Assembly: GCA_048882485.1 (NCBI GenBank)
Contig: JBHLRP010000011.1
Span: 1-64,000 of the forward strand
DNA: 64,000 nucleotides
Origin: Candidatus Thorarchaeota archaeon
GTDB taxonomy: Archaea; Asgardarchaeota; Thorarchaeia; Thorarchaeales; Thorarchaeaceae
Direction of reading: 5' to 3'
Below are positions 30,125 to 52,101 of this stretch, piece by piece (position 1 is the first letter of the stretch; the number at the start of each line of letters is the position of its first letter). The notes beneath the pieces are model-generated. The model had not been told where the DNA came from. It did not search any database and was given only the letters and a program-made list of their open reading frames with translations. A program made the position numbers and the translations under genes.

Positions 30125-31612
30125 ATGAGTGGTCTGGCTATGGCAAGGGATTCTGTAAAAGAGAATCTCAGAAGGCATCGTCTGTTTATCATTGTGCTTC
30201 TATTGGCTGCAGTTGTCTGGATCTGGGTCTTTTCTCAAGCAGCAATACAATTTGTCACTAGCACAACATGGCCTCGAGCAGTATGGAATGGCTATGGTAG
30301 AATCGATCTCTTTGGCTTCCCCATCAGATTTGCATACGAGGGCTGGGCTGACCATGATTATTTCTATCATAGCTGGGCTAATCAGTTCCTAAGTGGTCTT
30401 ATGCCTTATACGCCAGAATTCGATCACTTAATTCAGAATGAGGCAAATTACAATGTCCCGTACTTCTTCCCTCCGCTCTACCTTTATGTCTGTGTTCTTG
30501 GCAAAGTGCTTCAACCAGACTTGGGGATTGGGTTTGTTCTCTCCTTGTTTGGATTCATGACCGCATTTCCTGCCTACGGTATTTCCAACTATCTCTCTGG
30601 GAACAGGAATGTTGGAGCTGTCGCAGCAGCGACCTATCTGCTAAGCCCAATAGTGCTTTATCACACTGCTTTCGAGTGGCTCAACCCTGCTCCCTTCGTT
30701 TTCTTTGCAATGCTATCCTTCTATCTCCTGATGCAAAATAGAAGACTCTCAGGAGTCCTTGCTATGACCACATCGGCGCTTTTCAAGCAGACAGCATTCT
30801 TCTTCGCGCTCCCTCTCATTGCATTCATGTTGAAACGTGCCCCGGAACCTGCTTCTGATGTTGAAGAAAACACAAATGATGAGGGGAAGTCAAAACGCCC
30901 AAAGAGTGACAATCTGGACTTACGGGGATTTGCGATTATGGCACTAGCTGTGTGTACCTATGCAGCAATTCTATCATTGCCATATCTGCTTGACCCACTC
31001 AACTATGGAAATGCAATCTTCTCACGAGCAGGGGCAACTTATCTGGATGACCTCACATCTCCTCCCCCAATGAACTATCCTATAACCCTTGCAGTTCTCT
31101 TCATCATTATTGGAGCGCCTGAGTGGCTGTCTGAACTCATTAATCAGATGACATACTACTCAATCGGGATTGCCATCCCTGTTATACTATTGCTGGTCTT
31201 GATGCTGATGGAGGTAAAGGATGACAGGGACCTTCAATCATACTGGCGGAGGATGCTTTTCATGACCTTGCTCTTGATGCTTTGTGTCCACATATTCTCG
31301 CCGCGTGGAATTTACAAGTACTACACTGTTGTTCTCGTGCCTTTCTTCTCAATTCTATCAACATCCAGTCTATGCCAGAGGTCCTCCGAGAGAGTAAATG
31401 TATCCTTACCCATGTTGTTTGTGCCAATGATATGCGGATTTGTGATAATGGTGCCCTCAAGAGCTGTCTATATGCTTTACCTCATACTCATTCTTGCTGG
31501 ATATGTCGTACACCGGTCATTCTCGGAAGTATATGAATTGGTTGCAGAACCTGCAAGGAAATTGCTTCGTAGGATAAATATTTCGGCACGAAAACGCTTT
31601 GCTACTCAATAA
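30125..31612 (+). CDS. Paralog of the preceding gene, putative GT-C-fold glycosyltransferase
   Basis: EGWADH, PY, YFFPPL, W.NP.PF.FF, FKQTA, PRG.YKYY shared with 28490..30121. Confidence 0.6.
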   Translation: MSGLAMARDSVKENLRRHRLFIIVLLLAAVVWIWVFSQAAIQFVTSTTWPRAVWNGYGRIDLFGFPIRFAYEGWADHDYFYHSWANQFLSGLMPYTPEFDHLIQNEANYNVPYFFPPLYLYVCVLGKVLQPDLGIGFVLSLFGFMTAFPAYGISNYLSGNRNVGAVAAATYLLSPIVLYHTAFEWLNPAPFVFFAMLSFYLLMQNRRLSGVLAMTTSALFKQTAFFFALPLIAFMLKRAPEPASDVEENTNDEGKSKRPKSDNLDLRGFAIMALAVCTYAAILSLPYLLDPLNYGNAIFSRAGATYLDDLTSPPPMNYPITLAVLFIIIGAPEWLSELINQMTYYSIGIAIPVILLLVLMLMEVKDDRDLQSYWRRMLFMTLLLMLCVHIFSPRGIYKYYTVVLVPFFSILSTSSLCQRSSERVNVSLPMLFVPMICGFVIMVPSRAVYMLYLILILAGYVVHRSFSEVYELVAEPARKLLRRINISARKRFATQ

Positions 31613-32771
31613 GCTTCTCTAATTCCTGCCTTTTCTTCTCCAGATTCTCACTCAACCGTGCAAGACGTGTATCAAGTTTCTCAACCTGCTCAGTATAGGT
31701 GTCCTTGGGCATTGCACCAGAGGCGTGTCTCTCCTCTATATGATCCCTTAGCTGCTGTACAGATTTGATTTCCTTCTCTAATGCCTTTGCATCAGCTTCC
31801 ATCTCTGCAGCCTGACTCTCTTCATCCGTTTGAAATTGCCTAGATGGAATCATTACTCCAAGCTGTGACTGAGTCTTTTCAGCGAAATCTTGGAATTGGT
31901 CTCGAAGCATCTCAATGTTCTTCTCTACACTAGTCATCTTCTTGTCCAGTTTGCTGATGTCCTTCTGCAGGTCAAAGACTGCATTGACTAACCTACGCAT
32001 TGTCTTCTCCATCTCAGCGCTGGCCTGCGCAGACACCTTTACCTGCTTCTCTTCTTTTTCTTGTTGGGCTTCTAAAACCTTGCTTGGCTTGGCAGTTCTT
32101 ACCTCTCCGCTCAACCATTTGATTGCATTCACCGCAAAGGCCTTGTTGCCCTGATGTTTTATGCCACCGCCTTTTCTGAACACCTCATAACTACCAACGC
32201 AAAGCACGCGTCCCTTTCCTGACTCTGCAATTGCAATGACTGGCTTATTCGGAGGATCAGCAGTATCGGATGTACTGGCTATTGTTGTCGCCTTAGCCGT
32301 GACATTAAGAGTGCAGCCAGACGGTATGAGGATGTCTTGCACATCTTCAGTCACAGGGTGCGAAAGGATATTGGTAATGATAGGCATTGTTGGAAGGCCC
32401 GCGTTGTTTCTCTCATCACGCACTGCCGTGTTTTCAAAACTGACTCCAAATCCTTTTGAAACCTGACTCAGGTTGTTCATCAAGCCCCGGTCGCCTCCCG
32501 ACAGCGAGAGCAGCAATAGACCACCTCCATTCTTCACATACCGCTTCAGAACATCAATCTCGGCTGGTCTCAGTTTTGAGCTATTTGGACAACCAAACAC
32601 CAAGACATCAGCTTTCTCAAGGTTCTTTGCGAGTATCATGAACTCAGTGTAAGGCTCAACATCGAAGTCATTGTCCTGCAAGAGCTTGGCGAGTTCTGAA
32701 TATGTTGTATCGAGCCTACCCCGTTCATTTTGGGTCTGGTCAAAGAGAACGAGCTTCCTTCTTCCGCTCAA
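31602..32771 (-). CDS. GIFT/DUF4350 (GldG/IFT52-like) domain protein with C-terminal coiled coil
   Basis: VLFDQ...E, DVLVFGCP, EIDVLKRYVKNGGGLLLL, GCTL.V, P.NKPVIA, GRVLCVGS; no signal peptide. Confidence 0.75.
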   Translation of the reverse strand: MSGRRKLVLFDQTQNERGRLDTTYSELAKLLQDNDFDVEPYTEFMILAKNLEKADVLVFGCPNSSKLRPAEIDVLKRYVKNGGGLLLLSLSGGDRGLMNNLSQVSKGFGVSFENTAVRDERNNAGLPTMPIITNILSHPVTEDVQDILIPSGCTLNVTAKATTIASTSDTADPPNKPVIAIAESGKGRVLCVGSYEVFRKGGGIKHQGNKAFAVNAIKWLSGEVRTAKPSKVLEAQQEKEEKQVKVSAQASAEMEKTMRRLVNAVFDLQKDISKLDKKMTSVEKNIEMLRDQFQDFAEKTQSQLGVMIPSRQFQTDEESQAAEMEADAKALEKEIKSVQQLRDHIEERHASGAMPKDTYTEQVEKLDTRLARLSENLEKKRQELEKLIE

Positions 32772-32930
32772 TAGTGTGTCCTCCTGTCTAGAGGTTGTGC
32801 GACGGAATGTGATGATAATAGAGAACTAATGAGAGTTGTGTAGGTGTCATCAGCATACCTTCTCCGCTTCGGAAGACTGAAATCTCACATGGGAATGCAG
32901 ATAGATGGAAAACGAGTCGGAGGTTGAAGA

Positions 32931-46891: not shown

Positions 46892-47035
46892 GGTCCCACG
46901 AATTAATTCAGAGGGCAGTGTGCCCTCCCTATTCTCCCTCAAATATACCTGATAATACTCTCTCTTATAGTAGCAGTAGACCATTCTCAACCAATAGTCC
47001 ATTCTGGACTAAACACTTGAGTGAAGGTTTCTGCG

Positions 47036-47794
47036 ATGCAAGAACGTCTCCAATCTGAACTCTTCGCCTCAATAGCAACCCTTGACCAGCTGAAGAAGAT
47101 GTTCGACATGGGCATAGTCGACATCAGATCCTATCAGAGGGAGTCTGAAGCACTGGCCAGTGAGGTAAAGGCGAATATTGCAGACCTGAAGCGCATCGGT
47201 CTAGATTTCGGCACCTTCATTCAGACTGAACGTGTTGCAGAACGATTCCCTGATGCTATTATGCTGCTTGACATTTCCCGACGTGAAAATAGATACCGTG
47301 GCGACGGCATGACAATGGATGAATATTATGACCACATTGGCCTCGCGATTCTTGATGTGGCAACTGTACATGCATCCAAGGGACTCATGGGACTGGCTGA
47401 ACTGATTGTTGAAGTTGTGAAGCGCATGCCTGAGCTAAAGGCAATAAGCTATAGTGATGTAATTGAGGCTGTCAACCGTGTAGCTGAGCACGGGCTAATC
47501 CCTGGAATTCGGACTCTGCGCGGTGGCGTGAAAGTTGTCGAGCTCCGCCCGCTTGAGCTCCGGAGGGACCAAGCGGATGTGGTGAACCTCGCTGCATCAA
47601 AAGGCTATGTTTCCGTTGAAGAAGTAATGATGCTTATGAAATGGTCTGAGGATCATGCAAGGCAAGTCCTATCCAGTCTAGTAGACGCCGGTATGGCAGT
47701 GGCAGACATTCGATTCTCAACCGGGGGCAGATACTACTTCCCAGGTCTACGTGCTAGGGACTCCAGCGATGGTGGACCTATCTCACGGCGATAG
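47036..47794 (+). CDS. ESCRT-II EAP30/Vps22-Vps36-like protein with Vps28-N-like N-terminal region
   Basis: C-terminal: YYDHIGLAILDV, GLMGLAEL, IS.SDV..AV, P.EL..DQ..V, GYVS, W....A..VL..L, D.....YYFP; N-terminal: ELFASIATLDQLKKMF..G......Y. Confidence 0.8.
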   Translation: MQERLQSELFASIATLDQLKKMFDMGIVDIRSYQRESEALASEVKANIADLKRIGLDFGTFIQTERVAERFPDAIMLLDISRRENRYRGDGMTMDEYYDHIGLAILDVATVHASKGLMGLAELIVEVVKRMPELKAISYSDVIEAVNRVAEHGLIPGIRTLRGGVKVVELRPLELRRDQADVVNLAASKGYVSVEEVMMLMKWSEDHARQVLSSLVDAGMAVADIRFSTGGRYYFPGLRARDSSDGGPISRR

Positions 47795-47795
47795 G

Positions 47796-48518
47796 TTAAA
47801 CGACAATCTTGATTGCCCCTTTCTTCTTATCCACCCAATCTGCAAGTCCTTTCTCTACCATTATTAGGAGTATCTGATGAAGGTCCTTCTCTGGCAGTCT
47901 AGCGAAGCTATACTCCTCTTCCTGAATGACTATTGATTTGACATCTAGTCTAACCTTTCCTGACTTCAAAGCCCATTCATAGATAATGTCCGCCCATTCC
48001 TCAAGGAATCTCCAGTAGACTCGCAATTGTCTTCGGTTTCTATCCAACCATTCTGCAATTTCTTTCTCAACAAGCACATTGCCAATTAACTTGAAAGAAT
48101 CAATCTTATTCGTAATATCGTTGAAGGGGGGCTCCTTGATGAAGGCGGTCACGGATAGGACATGAACATCATGAGCTTCCATCCATCTAAGAACGAAATC
48201 AGACCACTCTTCAGCCCACATGTTTCTGTCTTCTTCTCGAGGAGGTATACCATACATCCACTCCGTCTGTGTAAGATCTCCCCAGGGAGGCATGATGACA
48301 ACTTCTTCCGTTTCGACTAAAACCTCCTCGGCTTCTACAGTTTCTTCGACAGCAGTGTCTGTTTCCACTTGCGTAATAACAACTTCTGGCTTGTGGATTT
48401 CCTCTGCTTCTTCAATCTCTTCGACAGGAATTACTTCATCTACAGTGGGTTCTGCTGTTGAGGTTTCTGACGTAGTCTCTTCCTTCTCCTTCTCCCTACG
48501 TCTTTCTCTGACACCCAC
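47796..48518 (-). CDS. ESCRT-II Vps25-like protein with acidic N-terminal extension
   Basis: W..EWSDFVL.W, LVEK..AEWLD, VYWR..EEWADIIYEW, L..MVEKGLA; downstream of vps4. Confidence 0.8.
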   Translation of the reverse strand: MGVRERRREKEKEETTSETSTAEPTVDEVIPVEEIEEAEEIHKPEVVITQVETDTAVEETVEAEEVLVETEEVVIMPPWGDLTQTEWMYGIPPREEDRNMWAEEWSDFVLRWMEAHDVHVLSVTAFIKEPPFNDITNKIDSFKLIGNVLVEKEIAEWLDRNRRQLRVYWRFLEEWADIIYEWALKSGKVRLDVKSIVIQEEEYSFARLPEKDLHQILLIMVEKGLADWVDKKKGAIKIVV

Positions 48519-48521
48519 TCC

Positions 48522-49745
48522 CTAGGAACCCTCCGCCCAATCGATATACCTCTTAACATCCTCTGGAGAAGTTGCTGGCCTTATGTTCTCAATCGCCTGC
48601 AGGAAATCCTCTCTGGATACAGGTCGAATATTAATGATCTTTTCTTCATCATCCATTCTTCCAGTACGCTGTAGGTCCCTTATTGGCTCCATGGCTGCTT
48701 CTCTACAGACGACACTTATATCGCGTCCACTATAGCCCTCACTGAGGTCCGCAAGCTCCTCATAGTTGACTTCGGGAGCGACTTCTATCTCTTCCATGTG
48801 GATCTCGAAGATTCGCTTTCTAGCTGGCTTATCTGGGAGGGGCACGTGAATCTTCTTCTCAAACCTTGACCGAAGAGCGAAATCCAATTCCCATGGTAGA
48901 TTTGTTGCACCAATAACTGTGACCCTATCTTCAAGATCACTGGCGAGTCCCTGCAGCTCTGTTAGAAGCTGAGTCTTGAGTCTTCTTTCTCCTCCAACAT
49001 CATCACCTGACCTAGAAACTCCGACAGAATCCAGCTCGTCCATGAAGACTATGGCAGGCTGATTTCGTCTGGCCAACGTGAAGAGATTCATGACTAGTTT
49101 CTCAGACTCACCAAGCCACTTGCTCACAATGTTGCCTGCTGAAACGTTGAAGAAAGTGGCATTCACCTCGGATGCCACTGCTTTTGCGATCAATGTCTTT
49201 CCACATCCCGCAGGACCGTAGAACAATATTCCTCTCCAAGGCTGACGAGACTTCCCTTTGAAGAGCTCTGGATGCTTCATTGGCGCAATAATCGCATCAT
49301 GAATTGCCTGCTTGGCATTCTCCAAGCCTGCAACGTCGCTCATCTTGACCTTAGGTTTCTCAGTGATGATTGTGTCAGCTATCATCTCCTGCAGTCTTCG
49401 GGTATCTTCATCAACCTCAGCTTCAGAAGCTGTTGCTTCCGTAGACTTTTCCGCTGTTGGCTCTGCTTCAGCAGGAGAAAACACTGGCGGCGTTGTCAAA
49501 CCATCTGGAGGGCCTCTCGCCTTCTTCTTTATTCCAGAGATATAGCGGACTCTGTCAACACACTCTTGTGCCCTGTCAAGGTAATGTTTCTGGACTGAGG
49601 GCAGAGATGCTGCATTTGACAGTTTGATCAGAATTTTGCTTGCTTTCAGATAGTACTGAGCAGCTTCCTTCTTCATTCCTCTCTGGTCAAGCTCTATGGC
49701 CTTGTCAAGTAGGTTTTTCAAGCCCTGGTCTAATCTATCAGACAT
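48522..49745 (-). CDS. vps4: Vps4-like AAA+ ATPase with N-terminal MIT domain
   Basis: MIT AIELD..G...EA..YY; DVAGLE.AK, PWRGILFYGPAGCGKT, SKWLGESEKLV, DELD, GATN.PW.LD, GYSG.DI, MEPIR. Confidence 0.92.
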   Translation of the reverse strand: MSDRLDQGLKNLLDKAIELDQRGMKKEAAQYYLKASKILIKLSNAASLPSVQKHYLDRAQECVDRVRYISGIKKKARGPPDGLTTPPVFSPAEAEPTAEKSTEATASEAEVDEDTRRLQEMIADTIITEKPKVKMSDVAGLENAKQAIHDAIIAPMKHPELFKGKSRQPWRGILFYGPAGCGKTLIAKAVASEVNATFFNVSAGNIVSKWLGESEKLVMNLFTLARRNQPAIVFMDELDSVGVSRSGDDVGGERRLKTQLLTELQGLASDLEDRVTVIGATNLPWELDFALRSRFEKKIHVPLPDKPARKRIFEIHMEEIEVAPEVNYEELADLSEGYSGRDISVVCREAAMEPIRDLQRTGRMDDEEKIINIRPVSREDFLQAIENIRPATSPEDVKRYIDWAEGS

Positions 49746-49905
49746 CCCTGTTCAGGTCTAACTGGAACCCGTGATGATAATAAGTTCTGTGTGACTATCA
49801 CTATATGCCGCTAATACTGGGATTGATAGATACTGTACACCAGCTCTACGAAGGTTTAAACGCTGAACATTCATCCTAGTGTTGTAGGGCGAAATCCCTA
49901 GCTAA

Positions 49906-50529
49906 GTGGTGAGACTTTTGGATTCACTCAGAAAGGCATTCAGATGGGGTCGGAAAAAACCCGACATTGGAGAGGTTTCCAGCCAACTCAGAATTCTAAC
50001 GAAACAACTTGCCCGTGAGAGAAACAAGTTGGAGAAGGAAGAACGTGATACAAGGGCGCGAGCTATCAAGGCTCGCCAAGCTGGACAAATGGATGCCTTC
50101 AAGACCTATGCAACTGAGATGGTACGTTTCAGAAGATATGCGCTCTCTACAGACAAGGCACGGCTTCAGATTCTCAAAATCCTTACCCATCTCAATCGTG
50201 CACAGACATCGGCAAGAACAGGCCGCGCACTCGAGGAGGTGGCAAAGATCCTCGGAATGCTTGGCGATACAAGTGACACCCGCAGGCTTGTTGAGAATGT
50301 TGATGAGATTACTCGTCGACTAGACGAATTCGAGATTGAGAGCGCTATATCTGCAGAGGCGCTTGATGCAAGCATGGAAGTCAGTTCAGATGATTTAGCT
50401 GCAGCTATGCAGGAGATAGATGTGGAAGTCGGATTAGCTGATGCAGCATCCGTGGCAGCTAGGCCTGCGTCTGAATCGGAAACTCTTGAGAAAGACATTA
50501 AGGATTTGGAGCGTGAACTGGGCATCTAG
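49906..50529 (+). CDS. ESCRT-III (Snf7-domain) protein, Vps2/24/46 (CHMP1-3)-like
   Basis: Basic helical N-half QL.R...KLEKEE......KA...GQMDA.K.YA.E.VR.R, acidic C-half, amphipathic C-terminal MIM-like helix; divergent from vps4. Confidence 0.85.
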   Translation: MVRLLDSLRKAFRWGRKKPDIGEVSSQLRILTKQLARERNKLEKEERDTRARAIKARQAGQMDAFKTYATEMVRFRRYALSTDKARLQILKILTHLNRAQTSARTGRALEEVAKILGMLGDTSDTRRLVENVDEITRRLDEFEIESAISAEALDASMEVSSDDLAAAMQEIDVEVGLADAASVAARPASESETLEKDIKDLERELGI

Positions 50530-52101
50530 TTACCATCTGTACCCATGACCATGCCTTGTTGCACGCTCGATTTCACGATTGGTCTGATATGAGTCGCGCA
50601 TGAGACCCCGATATCTTCTGATGAAGTCTTCAGGGACCAAGTGTCCGTTTCTCATTAGATGTAGAGTTTCGTTAATCGCATTTTGAATCTCTAGTGCGTT
50701 TCTCCTGAGATATTCCATATCAGATTCGGCAGTTGTATACGAAGGGTCTCGATAGTACCCTCGTCCATAGTCCGTGCGTCCAAGAGTGTCCTCAAGATGC
50801 TCCTTGAACGCTTTAGGATGGTCATAAGGATTCTCAATTCGCCCATATCTTGATGGAGCTGGTCGTGGCTGATAGAATTCAGTTCTCCTAGGATATCCTC
50901 GCTGTACTTCTGAGGCATTTCCAGTTGCGGAGAGCAATGAGTATACCAATCCCTCTATCTTGAGTCTGACATCGCTAATGTTGAGGTTCTTCTGCTCGAT
51001 TTTTCGAACTCTCTGAAGATCACTCTGCATATACTTCTCAAACTTCCTCGCAATCTCAAAATAATCTGGCATGACCTTTTTTGTTTCCTCGCTGCAGGAG
51101 ATCTTCAAATCGCCCTGTTTTAGTCGCAATACAATTCTCTTGCGAAGTCGACCATCTTCTTCGATATCTTTCAAATACATCAGTGGAAACTGGAATACAA
51201 TCTCAGTCTTCTTGCGTAATCTTCCTGTCTCAGCTACTAGGAATAGCCTCTTGTTTGTGATGAAGAGTGTGCCGTAGGCTTTGTCATTTTTCAAGAAGTT
51301 GCTACCTACAACCTTGATGTCCGGCAGAGCAGCTACAGGCAATTCATTAACAGATAGCTCGCCATGTTCATAGAACTCTGCGAATTCCTGCCTATGATAG
51401 CTCAGACCATCAAGTTGCGCCATTACTTCCTGCAGTCTTGGTCTGACCTCATGAAGGCTATCATCGACATGTTGCTTGTAGTACGTGCCGAGCTCTGATA
51501 CTCTATTTCTGACACCTTCAATGAAGGGGAACTGAGCAGGAGTCCACTTGCTATAGTCAATGAGGCCTTTTGTTTCAGCAGCGATTTGCTTTGCTACTAT
51601 CTCAGCTTGATTTCCAATTCGGCTCTTGATTGCAGGCATCTCATCCTGCACTGACTCGACTTTTTCCTCTATCCAATGATAATGTAGGAAGTTAGCCATC
51701 CTGAGAGATACAAGCGTTCTTTTGGCATTATCAAGCTTGGTCATGAACTCTCGCAATTTGGTATGGCCGTACTGAATGCTCATGATGGCTTGCCTAAGCT
51801 CTTGAGCCAGAGTTCGTCGTTTCTCTTCCAATAGGATTATGCGACTTGAGTGGCATCGAGGACAAATGTCAGCTGTGCGTCTACCTGTGTCAATGTTCTC
51901 AGATTCACACTCAGGACAGCTTTCTATCTCTTCGCCCTGTAACGTTGTCAATGTTGCGTGACACTCACGGCACATGTGATACTCTTTGGTTCTTGAGTCA
52001 AGGCACTCTGAGCATAGCACAGTCCCACAATCTTCACACAAGTGACTGGCTCTGTTTCTTTGACAGACAGGACAGCGATGAGATGAGGAGTCTAGTGTCA
52101 A
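50530..52101 (-). CDS. B-box/Zn-finger + coiled-coil + PH/GRAM-like + Vps23/37 steadiness-box-like protein
   Basis: CPVC..HLCEDC...LCSEC, CREC/CPEC/CPRC; GTLFITNKRLFL; AINETLHLMRNGHLVPEDFIRRYRGL. Confidence 0.65.
   Translation of the reverse strand: MTLDSSSHRCPVCQRNRASHLCEDCGTVLCSECLDSRTKEYHMCRECHATLTTLQGEEIESCPECESENIDTGRRTADICPRCHSSRIILLEEKRRTLAQELRQAIMSIQYGHTKLREFMTKLDNAKRTLVSLRMANFLHYHWIEEKVESVQDEMPAIKSRIGNQAEIVAKQIAAETKGLIDYSKWTPAQFPFIEGVRNRVSELGTYYKQHVDDSLHEVRPRLQEVMAQLDGLSYHRQEFAEFYEHGELSVNELPVAALPDIKVVGSNFLKNDKAYGTLFITNKRLFLVAETGRLRKKTEIVFQFPLMYLKDIEEDGRLRKRIVLRLKQGDLKISCSEETKKVMPDYFEIARKFEKYMQSDLQRVRKIEQKNLNISDVRLKIEGLVYSLLSATGNASEVQRGYPRRTEFYQPRPAPSRYGRIENPYDHPKAFKEHLEDTLGRTDYGRGYYRDPSYTTAESDMEYLRRNALEIQNAINETLHLMRNGHLVPEDFIRRYRGLMRDSYQTNREIERATRHGHGYRW

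Follow-up and report, generated by a model that had tools for sequence, protein, structure and literature searches.

The stretch of DNA considered here (the window; 64,000 nt) lies on contig C11 of a 3.96-Mb thorarchaeal genome, which is 90.5% complete and distributed over 157 contigs. An earlier note on this DNA had proposed a five-gene ESCRT locus, and all five ORFs were found in the ORF list of the window at the coordinates named beforehand (47036–52101), with each family reading confirmed. The genes follow one another in the order g1 (+), g2 (−), g3 (−), g4 (+) and g5 (−) and code for a Vps28-N/Vps22 fusion, Vps25, Vps4, an ESCRT-III protein and a Znr_CC_PH_SB protein, respectively. The block is flanked by AspRS and TldD/PmbA, and the order and orientation of block and flanks are identical in 18 related loci, 6 from near relatives and 12 from other genera; the arrangement is therefore not due to chance.

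Vps25, Vps4 and two classes of ESCRT-III

Vps25 (g2; 47796–48518, minus strand; Pfam ESCRT-II, 59 bits) is encoded on the same strand as vps4, 3 nt downstream of it, and is the only Vps25 gene that the Pfam ESCRT-II search returned from the genome. The protein possesses an acidic, variable N-terminal extension of ~75 residues, and conservation among orthologs starts at residue 75. The AAA+ ATPase Vps4 (g3; 48522–49745, minus strand) has a MIT, AAA, lid and Vps4_C architecture in Pfam, with 134 bits for AAA, 28.9 bits for Vps4_C, a match to AAA_lid_3 and a MIT score of 24.4 bits, which is under the Pfam cut-off of 30. Against the NCBIfam CdvC model g3 reached 272 bits, under the equivalog cut-off of that model. 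Vps4 and the neighbouring ESCRT-III gene are divergently transcribed from a 160-bp spacer (49746–49905), as had been noted earlier, and the spacer measures about 140–210 bp in orthologous loci. It contains a BRE/TATA-like motif, CGAAGGTTTAAACG (49849–49862, plus strand), ~45 nt upstream of the ESCRT-III start, whose core CGAA-GTTTAAACG is invariant across 10 aligned spacers, including 3 from other genera, and whose position 5 (G) is nearly invariant. The motif may act as a promoter element.

The ESCRT-III protein of the locus (g4; 49906–50529, plus strand; Snf7, 44 bits) belongs to the ESCRT-IIIA, or Vps2/24/46 (CHMP1–3), class. Its best matches in the PDB are CHMP2A and CHMP1B, and its family profile aligned with CHMP1B at 2.3e-13, followed by CHMP1A, CHMP2A and CHMP3, with Heimdall ESCRT-IIIB at just 6e-4. 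The C-terminal amphipathic tail, LExxIxxLExELG[VI] (50485–50526, plus strand), is a candidate MIT-interacting motif; residues L194, E195, L201, E202, L205 and G206 do not vary among 14 orthologs, and the hydrophobic spacing is MIM1-like without the canonical basic residues. The earlier note had counted only one ESCRT-III, which holds for the locus and the window, the only other Snf7 match on contig C11 being noise (E 0.73), but not for the genome. A gene of the ESCRT-IIIB (Vps20/32/60) class is located on contig C2 (49611–50273; Snf7, 60 bits), and its family profile matched Heimdall ESCRT-IIIB at 1.5e-21 and Snf7 at 1.5e-8. Hence, the suggestion that the second class, the usual partner of Vps25, might be encoded elsewhere proved correct, and the description of the pathway as minimal does not extend to the whole genome. 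The IMPase/ESCRT-IIIB/HAD context of this gene is kept in 12 genomes. Exactly two Snf7 genes are present in 71 of 87 Thorarchaeia genomes, and they are unlinked, being 0.3–1.1 Mb apart in single-contig assemblies.

Fused subunits with ESCRT-I features

The g1 protein (47036–47794, plus strand) combines a Vps28 N-terminal core with a Vps22-type domain (Pfam EAP30, 54 bits, residues 74–229). The longest ORF opens at a GTG at 47021, but ATG 47036 is probably the true start, because orthologs begin at residue 6 of the longest ORF. The AF2 model (pLDDT 87) consists of a hairpin (H2–29, H35–58) and two winged helices, and the best Foldseek matches are the human and yeast ESCRT-II chains 2zme_A, 3cuq_A and 1u5t_A. 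The headpiece hairpin was assigned with hhalign to ORF residues 8–88 (47042–47284, plus strand), the g1 family aligning with 13 Asgard Vps28 proteins at 99% probability (E 3e-18), and the g1 ORF is the sole match of an Asgard Vps28-N HMM in the genome (3.1e-14). A Vps28-C HMM had no match in this genome and no stand-alone Vps28 was found in it; within the main thorarchaeal family, none of 26 genomes matched Pfam VPS28, versus 101 of 151 phylum-wide. The hhalign result equals that for the Asgard 'Vps22#' (asCOG cog.002769), residues 1–70 of the thorarchaeal protein KXH75178.1 having been assigned to the VPS28 N-terminal domain with an HHpred probability of 99% (Makarova et al. 2024, mBio 15:e00335-24, Table S3).

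The Znr_CC_PH_SB protein g5 (50530–52101, minus strand) resembles, by AF2, Foldseek and profile comparisons, a Vps23-like ESCRT-I subunit devoid of a UEV domain. In its AF2 model (pLDDT 78), Zn ribbons and a coiled coil precede a PH-like domain, and a hairpin lies at the C-terminus. The Zn-ribbon region (residues 1–90; 51832–52101) has six conserved CxxC pairs, of which C22, C25, C30, C33, C44, C47, C62, C65, C80 and C83 are invariant and C10 and C13 nearly so. It is followed by a long, stalk-like helical or coiled-coil region (residues 91–245; 51367–51831) with helices at 91–135, 142–177, 188–217 and 220–245 (pLDDT mostly 85–95), and by a PH/GLUE-like domain (residues 255–357; 51031–51339) of seven strands and a C-terminal helix, whose Foldseek matches include the EAP45/Vps36 GLUE domain 2hth_B (TM 0.60), the Lam6 PH-like domain and the MTMR2 GRAM-PH domain. 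The C-terminal hairpin (residues 458–518; 50548–50730; helices 458–484 and 490–518, pLDDT >90) is assigned as a Vps23-type steadiness box because the C-terminal profile (A3) matched the yeast Vps23 core 2f66 at 3.7e-5; 2p22 and 2caz were also matched, as was TSG101 (6vme) at 7e-3, and the alignment with Vps28-N was weak (35% probability). Identity among g5 orthologs is ~45–60% for other genera of the class and reaches 96% for near relatives, and the family occurs in 98 of the 151 Asgard genomes sampled. It corresponds domain for domain to Znr_CC_PH_SB (cog.011556), with three Zn ribbons, PH, coiled coil and steadiness box; both this family and the SB-fused Vps22 have already been described, and nothing essential separates g1 and g5 from them [Makarova 2024]. 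The present analysis adds that the steadiness box of g5 is closest to Vps23/TSG101, that its PH domain is GLUE/GRAM-like and that the genome lacks a Vps28 C-terminal domain.

Proposed assembly and function

Based on these comparisons of sequences and predicted structures, we hypothesize that g5 is a Vps23-like subunit in which the three Zn ribbons and the GLUE-like PH domain would replace the eukaryotic UEV, and that its steadiness box and the Vps28-N hairpin of g1 pair into a headpiece like that of ESCRT-I. [quoted passage not shown] Subsequently, g1 would bind Vps25, which may recruit the unlinked ESCRT-IIIB; ESCRT-IIIB would nucleate the ESCRT-IIIA polymer, and Vps4 would disassemble it via the conserved C-terminal tails. 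Targeting to membrane or cargo would fall to g5, through its module of PH domain and Zn ribbons, instead of to ubiquitin. For thorarchaeal proteins, a self-interaction of Vps22, a possible SB–Vps28 contact and possible contacts of ESCRT-I/II with ESCRT-III that bypass Vps25 have been reported (Hatano et al. 2022, Nat Commun 13:3398).

The proposed assembly has in common with eukaryotic ESCRT-I/II (Vps23–Vps28–Vps37–Mvb12 and Vps22–Vps36–two Vps25) the steadiness-box and Vps28-N headpiece hairpins, a coiled-coil stalk, the tandem winged-helix ESCRT-II core and Vps25, together with two ESCRT-III classes and Vps4, whereas UEV, ubiquitin, Vps37, Mvb12 and the Vps28 C-terminal domain are lacking. 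The eukaryotic bridge from Vps28 to Vps36 is non-covalent, whereas g1 carries Vps28-N and the Vps22/36 homolog in one fused chain; the PH/GLUE-like domain and Zn fingers are found on the Vps23-like subunit rather than on Vps36.

The same order of assembly would be compatible with a role in cytokinesis, like that of Cdv in TACK archaea, instead of cargo sorting or vesicle budding. Division of Sulfolobales is driven by ESCRT-III and Vps4, which by analogy may point to such a role, and cargo-recognition domains of known specificity are missing. However, the tubulin/FtsZ family is represented in the genome by three genes, two with strong scores (161 and 151 bits), and a convincing CdvA is lacking; the sole match near the cut-off is to a transporter-like membrane protein, in its coiled-coil tail. 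In addition, the ESCRT-I/II-like parts and the PH domain suggest membrane targeting as in eukaryotic sorting, and we therefore regard cytokinesis as an unlikely function of the locus.

Ubiquitin and archaeal-type modifiers in Thorarchaeia

No ubiquitin, E2, UEV or Vps23_core gene was found in this genome, and contig C11 gave no match to ubiquitin, E2, UEV or ThiF, in agreement with the reported lack of ubiquitin, E1/E2 and UEV in the window. A UEV-Vps23, a stand-alone Vps28 or a ubiquitin gene elsewhere had been named beforehand as speaking against the earlier interpretation, and the genome search found none of them. It is the class-wide zero, rather than one 90.5%-complete genome, that carries the argument: ubiquitin was matched in 0 of 87 Thorarchaeia genomes, including 24 high-quality and three single-contig assemblies, while the identical search matched it in 107 of the 123 other Asgard genomes of the phylum sample; likewise, none of the 87 class genomes had an E2 over the cut-off. 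The genome does encode six ThiS/MoaD/Urm1-type ORFs ending in Gly-Gly (over the Pfam cut-off of the ThiS family), a SAMP2-like ORF and two ThiF-type E1-like proteins. Because such modifiers and enzymes exist, the proposed ubiquitin independence stands for eukaryote-type ubiquitin, E2 and UEV and is narrowed to these. The idea itself is not new, as Thorarchaeota were described as possessing ESCRT-I/II/III seemingly without ubiquitin [Hatano 2022].

The archaeal modifiers raise the question of whether the pathway depends on a SAMP/MoaD/Urm1-type beta-grasp tag, whose receptor would be either the Zn ribbons of g5 or its GLUE-like PH domain. Eukaryotic Vps36 binds ubiquitin through NZF-type zinc fingers and GLUE domains, an analogy that would fit such a receptor, and the GLUE domain of EAP45, taken from a structure of a ubiquitin complex (2hth), is similar to the PH domain of g5. 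However, neither ESCRT locus is linked to a beta-grasp or E1-like gene, and ThiS/MoaD proteins, which most archaea require for cofactor sulfur chemistry, are expected regardless. Since many other Asgard genomes encode both a g5-family protein and true ubiquitin, g5 is not a Thorarchaeia-specific ubiquitin substitute, and dependence on an archaeal tag appears quite improbable. That ubiquitin, E2 and UEV genes are present but were missed, being too divergent or lost in the gaps of an incomplete assembly of 157 contigs, is very improbable given the class-wide counts; a candidate ORF (C12:59480–59791) had no Pfam match at E 0.1, and independent surveys agree [Hatano 2022; Lu 2023 preprint], the latter stating that UEV-Vps23 is missing from Thor and Loki. 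An ESCRT system that is truly minimal, having just one polymer-forming ESCRT-III subunit, as the lone Snf7 gene of locus and window could suggest, is ruled out for practical purposes by the ESCRT-IIIB gene on contig C2 and the class-wide Snf7 counts.

The lack of eukaryote-type ubiquitin sets Thorarchaeia apart from Heimdall-, Hel-, Odin- and Lokiarchaeia, whose ubiquitin-ESCRT clusters share the ESCRT-II, ESCRT-III and Vps4 core and in many cases a Znr_CC_PH_SB homolog. These lineages encode ubiquitin, E1/E2/E3, UEV or UEV-Vps23 and stand-alone Vps28, whereas Thorarchaeia lack all of them. An identical gene set is found in Thorarchaeota AB_25 (ThorAB25_08990 to _09030), which represents another genus or species; ThorAB25_08990 ('SB', the ortholog of g5), _09020 ('Vps25') and _09030 ('Vps22') belong to the set of proteins that had been synthesised for yeast two-hybrid screening, and the sequence starts printed in the supplement match the g5 and g1 families, labelled there only as steadiness-box protein and Vps22, respectively [Hatano 2022]. 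The absence of ubiquitin, the subunit fusions and the locus itself have thus already been published [Hatano 2022; Makarova 2024]. Taken jointly with the proposed assembly and targeting scheme, the locus is very probably the class-typical five-gene ESCRT membrane-remodelling locus of Thorarchaeia.

A conserved Thorarchaeia ESCRT locus

All five open reading frames of the compact ESCRT locus that the earlier note had claimed at 47036-52101 are present as described, occupying 47021-52101. They encode, in order, a Vps28-N/Vps22 (EAP30) fusion (g1; 47021-47794, + strand, 257 aa), Vps25 (g2; 47796-48518, - strand, 240 aa), Vps4 (g3; 48522-49745, - strand, 407 aa), ESCRT-IIIA (g4; 49906-50529, + strand, 207 aa) and a Znr_CC_PH_SB protein (g5; 50530-52101, - strand, 523 aa). 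As the g1 orthologs begin at residue 6 of the longest ORF, g1 likely starts at the ATG at 47036. The convergent genes g1 and g2 lie 1 nt apart, vps4 is separated by 3 nt from the downstream, same-strand vps25, g4 and g5 converge with zero gap, and the divergent vps4/g4 spacer measures 160 bp (49746-49905), as had been noted. This spacer contains the motif CGAAGGTTTAAACG (49849-49862), located approximately 45 nt upstream of the g4 start, with a core, CGAA-GTTTAAACG, that is unvarying in ten aligned spacers, three of them from other genera. Judged from its sequence, the motif is likely the BRE/TATA promoter element of the ESCRT-IIIA gene. A scan for sigma-70 promoters and terminators was uninformative, the organism being an archaeon.

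The genome under study is a 3.96-Mb assembly of 157 contigs that is 90.5% complete, in which the window forms part of contig C11. The gene order AspRS, g1, g2, g3, g4, g5, TldD/PmbA is the same in six near relatives and, within the main Thorarchaeia family, in another 12 genera. The window adds another example of an ESCRT locus conserved across the class Thorarchaeia, and the earlier note had rightly read a system that is real and interesting, yet already known. The layout differs in G001, the sole genome from the sister family, where a g5-like gene (29% identity) adjoins adjacent IIIB-like and IIIA genes. G001 also has three Snf7 genes and a weak VPS28 match (24.6 bits), is still without ubiquitin, and is useful for polarising loss versus ancestry. 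Several public records that are 90-96% identical to the locus or fall within the g5 family are titled Hermodarchaeota, Promethearchaeota, Hodarchaeota, Lokiarchaeota or Sifarchaeia; the use of other Asgard names for near-identical records looks like inconsistent MAG labelling.

Several components have been described previously. The Thorarchaeota proteins ThorAB25_08990 (SB), ThorAB25_09020 (Vps25) and ThorAB25_09030 (Vps22) were among those synthesised in a study that included a yeast two-hybrid screen and stated repeatedly that Thorarchaeota seemingly lack ubiquitin (Hatano et al. 2022). For the Thor proteins, this screen gave a Vps22 self-interaction, a possible contact between steadiness box and Vps28, and possible contacts bypassing Vps25, while the Vps25-ESCRT-IIIB link was given for Asgard proteins in general (Hatano et al. 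2022). The SB-fused Vps22 and the Znr_CC_PH_SB family have been defined by Makarova et al. (2024), whose Table S3 lists the N-terminus of a Thor Vps22 as VPS28-N (99%), and a 2023 preprint reported that Thor- and Lokiarchaeia are without UEV-Vps23.

[quoted passage not shown]

The Pfam profiles VPS28 and Vps23_core missed both the N-terminus of g1 and the C-terminus of g5, and profile-profile and profile-PDB searches were therefore needed. The g1 product matches EAP30 (PF04157) with 54 bits. Its AF2 model (pLDDT 87) starts with a confidently predicted helical hairpin, after which come two winged helices, and its best Foldseek matches are the human and yeast ESCRT-II chains 2zme_A, 3cuq_A and 1u5t_A (E down to 1e-9). 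Pfam, AF2 and Foldseek agree on the tandem winged-helix ESCRT-II core typical of Vps22/Vps36. When aligned by hhalign to a reference set, drawn from other Asgard genomes, of 13 genuine Vps28 genes, g1 residues 8-88 match Asgard Vps28 residues 24-104 (99% probability, E 3e-18), the core hairpin by which the Vps28 N-terminus enters the headpiece, and g1 is the sole match of a Vps28-N HMM in its genome. Hence, g1 is a Vps28 N-terminal domain fused to Vps22/36. It passes straight into EAP30 without the Vps28 C-terminal four-helix bundle, which binds ESCRT-II, and is therefore not a Vps28 ortholog but merely carries the N-terminal domain. A Vps28-C HMM had no match in the six-frame ORFs of the genome, an absence that fits a covalent Vps28-N/Vps22 link. 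When residues 1-95 of g1 served as query in a region-restricted word search, every match was a Thor EAP30 fusion and none a stand-alone Vps28, and VPS28 (PF03997) is over the cut-off in 0/26 genomes of the main Thor family versus 101/151 of the phylum sample.

The only Pfam VPS28 match in the genome, a 427-aa coiled-coil protein (C10:52046-53329), was rejected as Vps28, its VPS28 (21.6 bits) and BAR (19.5 bits) matches both being sub-threshold; a relationship to the 'BAR-SB' architecture of Thor (Makarova et al. 2024, Table S3) is possible. Weak EAP30 matches on contigs C21 and C30, by eye an MCM-type protein and a small wHTH protein, were set aside as noise. A 779-aa protein (C2:96480-98819) combines a coiled coil and an Ig-like (CarboxypepD_reg-like) domain with a C-terminal Vps22/EAP30-like region (20 bits, sub-threshold). 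Such a C-terminal match is shared by many proteins of approximately 770 aa among the distant g1 homologs, and the C2 protein may represent a second ESCRT-II-like module.

The g2 product belongs to the Vps25 family, with a match to PF05871 (ESCRT-II/Vps25) of 59 bits over residues 88-188 (cut-off 27). Its residues 1-75 (48294-48518) form an acidic, low-complexity N-terminal extension, which is found in the orthologs too, with its sequence poorly kept.

For g5, Pfam gave only weak zinc-ribbon and PH hints. Its N-terminal Zn-ribbon region (residues 1-90) has six conserved CxxC pairs and is followed in the AF2 model (pLDDT 78) by long helices (residues 91-245), a seven-stranded sandwich with a C-terminal helix (residues 255-357), a disordered linker (residues 394-457) and a helical hairpin (residues 458-518). 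By Foldseek, the sandwich groups with PH, GRAM and GLUE folds, one of its matches being the GLUE domain of EAP45/Vps36. A profile of the hairpin built from 14 orthologs matches the yeast Vps23 ESCRT-I core (2f66, 3.7e-5; also 2p22 and 2caz) and TSG101 (6vme, 7e-3) in the steadiness-box region, the C-terminal element of Vps23/TSG101. Alignments of the hairpin by hhalign to Vps28-N (35%) and to the g1 N-terminus (3%) were not significant. By Pfam, g5 contains no UEV domain, the best UEV match across the genome having an E of 0.68. Based on the steadiness-box matches, g5 is a Vps23-like subunit that lacks the UEV domain, and compared by description it has the one-chain architecture of the Asgard Znr_CC_PH_SB family (cog.011556), with three Zn ribbons, a coiled coil, a PH domain and a steadiness box. 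Homologs were found with the family profile in 98/151 sampled Asgard genomes, including 28/28 Thorarchaeia and many ubiquitin-bearing lineages; the family is therefore an old Asgard component and not a Thor-specific replacement for ubiquitin recognition.

Vps4 and the ESCRT-III pair

The g3 product has the single AAA cassette (134 bits), lid (AAA_lid_3, 51 bits) and C-terminal oligomerisation helix (Vps4_C, 28.9 bits; cut-off 21.3) of Vps4. Its residues 11-69 match the Pfam MIT domain with an E of 3.2e-5 and 24.4 bits, which is under the gathering cut-off of 30.

A single ESCRT-III had been claimed in the earlier note, which allowed that the second class might be encoded elsewhere. The claim holds for the locus, in which g4 matches Pfam Snf7 with 44 bits, but not for the genome, since a second Snf7 gene (60 bits) is present on contig C2 at 49611-50273. 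Its product starts with MGFLSGKKK, and the gene has an IMPase-like gene on one side and a gene for a HAD hydrolase on the other. Against the PDB, the g4 family profile matches CHMP1B (2.3e-13), CHMP1A (6.6e-11), CHMP2A (1.2e-9) and CHMP3 (1.5e-7), and Heimdall ESCRT-IIIB with a mere 6e-4, Snf7 being absent among the matches, whereas the family profile of the C2 gene has as its matches the structure of Heimdall ESCRT-IIIB (1.5e-21), Snf7 (1.5e-8) and a Vps20/32/60-like protein (2.9e-8). The family profiles split the two paralogs cleanly, and these class calls, which rest on PDB profile matches, assign g4 to ESCRT-IIIA (Vps2/24/46, CHMP1-3) and the C2 gene to ESCRT-IIIB (Vps20/32/60). Snf7 is present in 84/87 Thorarchaeia genomes, 71 of the 87 having precisely two copies, which lie on different contigs or, in single-contig assemblies, 0.3-1.1 Mb apart. 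The ESCRT-IIIB neighbourhood is kept in 12 genomes from different genera and is unlinked to the ESCRT locus. Both proteins have kept C-terminal tails (LExxIxxLExELG[VI] in g4 and IDxLLAxLExEA in ESCRT-IIIB) that are candidate MIT-binding helices; compared with the MIM1 consensus (D/E)xxLxxRLxxL(K/R), the g4 tail has the L/I/L spacing, with acidic residues where basic ones are expected. The only other matches to Snf7 (E 0.73) and Vps28-N (E 2.6) on contig C11 come from a 407-aa ORF with a long C-terminal coiled coil (31602-32825, - strand); they are insignificant and were treated as coiled-coil noise.

Ubiquitin, other modifiers and membrane targeting

The reported lack of ubiquitin-system genes was borne out by the genome-wide search, in which no credible match was found for ubiquitin (best E 0.59), E2 (UQ_con; 0.55) or UEV (0.68), and none at all for Vps23_core. 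Across Thorarchaeia, 0/87 genomes (17 genera, 24 of the genomes being high-quality) have ubiquitin (PF00240), and E2 (PF00179) is over the cut-off in none of the same 87. As a positive control, PF00240 is found in 107/151 genomes of the phylum sample, with 0/28 in Thor and 107/123 in the others. Thus, the search of the genome did not turn up the UEV-Vps23, stand-alone Vps28 and ubiquitin operon that would remove the ubiquitin-independent interpretation.

Other modifiers are encoded, however. The genome has two ThiF-type E1-like proteins and six ThiS/MoaD/Urm1-family ORFs that end in Gly-Gly and are over the Pfam cut-offs (L060 and L062-L066, on contigs C5, C14, C16, C20, C32 and C53). There are also a SAMP2-like ORF, a paralog that is under the ThiS cut-off and has its GG capped by eight residues, and an ORF of ubiquitin-like appearance that ends in SAVR and has no Pfam match; these lie on contigs C7 (L061), C5 (L067) and C12 (L068). 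None of the E1-like and GG-ended beta-grasp genes is linked to any ESCRT locus. One ThiF-type E1-like protein, on contig C9 (L023:1345-2508; 387 aa), has a C-terminal extension of approximately 130 residues, and no beta-grasp gene adjoins its gene. The pathway can therefore be called independent of eukaryote-type ubiquitin, the part of the earlier claim that stands, whereas 'tag-free' is unproven because SAMP/Urm1-type modifiers exist.

By homology, the g5 steadiness box and the Vps28-N hairpin of g1 would pair to form a headpiece, and the g1 winged helices would dimerise and bind Vps25. Next, Vps25 would recruit ESCRT-IIIB, which would nucleate ESCRT-IIIA, and the polymer would be recycled by Vps4, while the PH and Zn-ribbon module of g5 would target the assembly to membrane or cargo. 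A primary role in Cdv-like division is less likely, as three genes of the FtsZ/tubulin family are present in the genome and CdvA has no convincing candidate there; the CdvA/SB Pfam matches on C29 (a transporter tail) and at C2:93356-93910 reached at most 10% probability in hhalign against the g5 steadiness box, Vps28-N and the g1 N-terminus. It is conceivable, although we consider it quite improbable, that ESCRT sorting in Thorarchaeia is still directed by a tag, one other than ubiquitin, with the Zn-ribbon and GLUE-like PH module of g5 reading a SAMP/Urm1-type modifier, or a lipid signal alone, and relaying it via the covalent ESCRT-I/II formed by the fusion of Vps28-N to Vps22. If so, the class would be a natural test of whether ESCRT-I/II predates the coupling to ubiquitin.

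To the published picture of an ESCRT pathway independent of eukaryote-type ubiquitin, this analysis adds a class-wide ubiquitin count with a positive control (0/87 versus 107/123), the conserved, unlinked neighbourhood of ESCRT-IIIB, the Vps23-type hairpin and GLUE-like PH domain of g5, the absence of the Vps28 C-terminal domain from the genome and the presence in it of SAMP/Urm1-type modifiers. Thorarchaeia are the one well-sampled Asgard class with ESCRT-I/II/III and Vps4 but without ubiquitin, E2 and UEV, and hence, as is established in the literature, a natural experiment on ESCRT-I/II targeting without ubiquitin.
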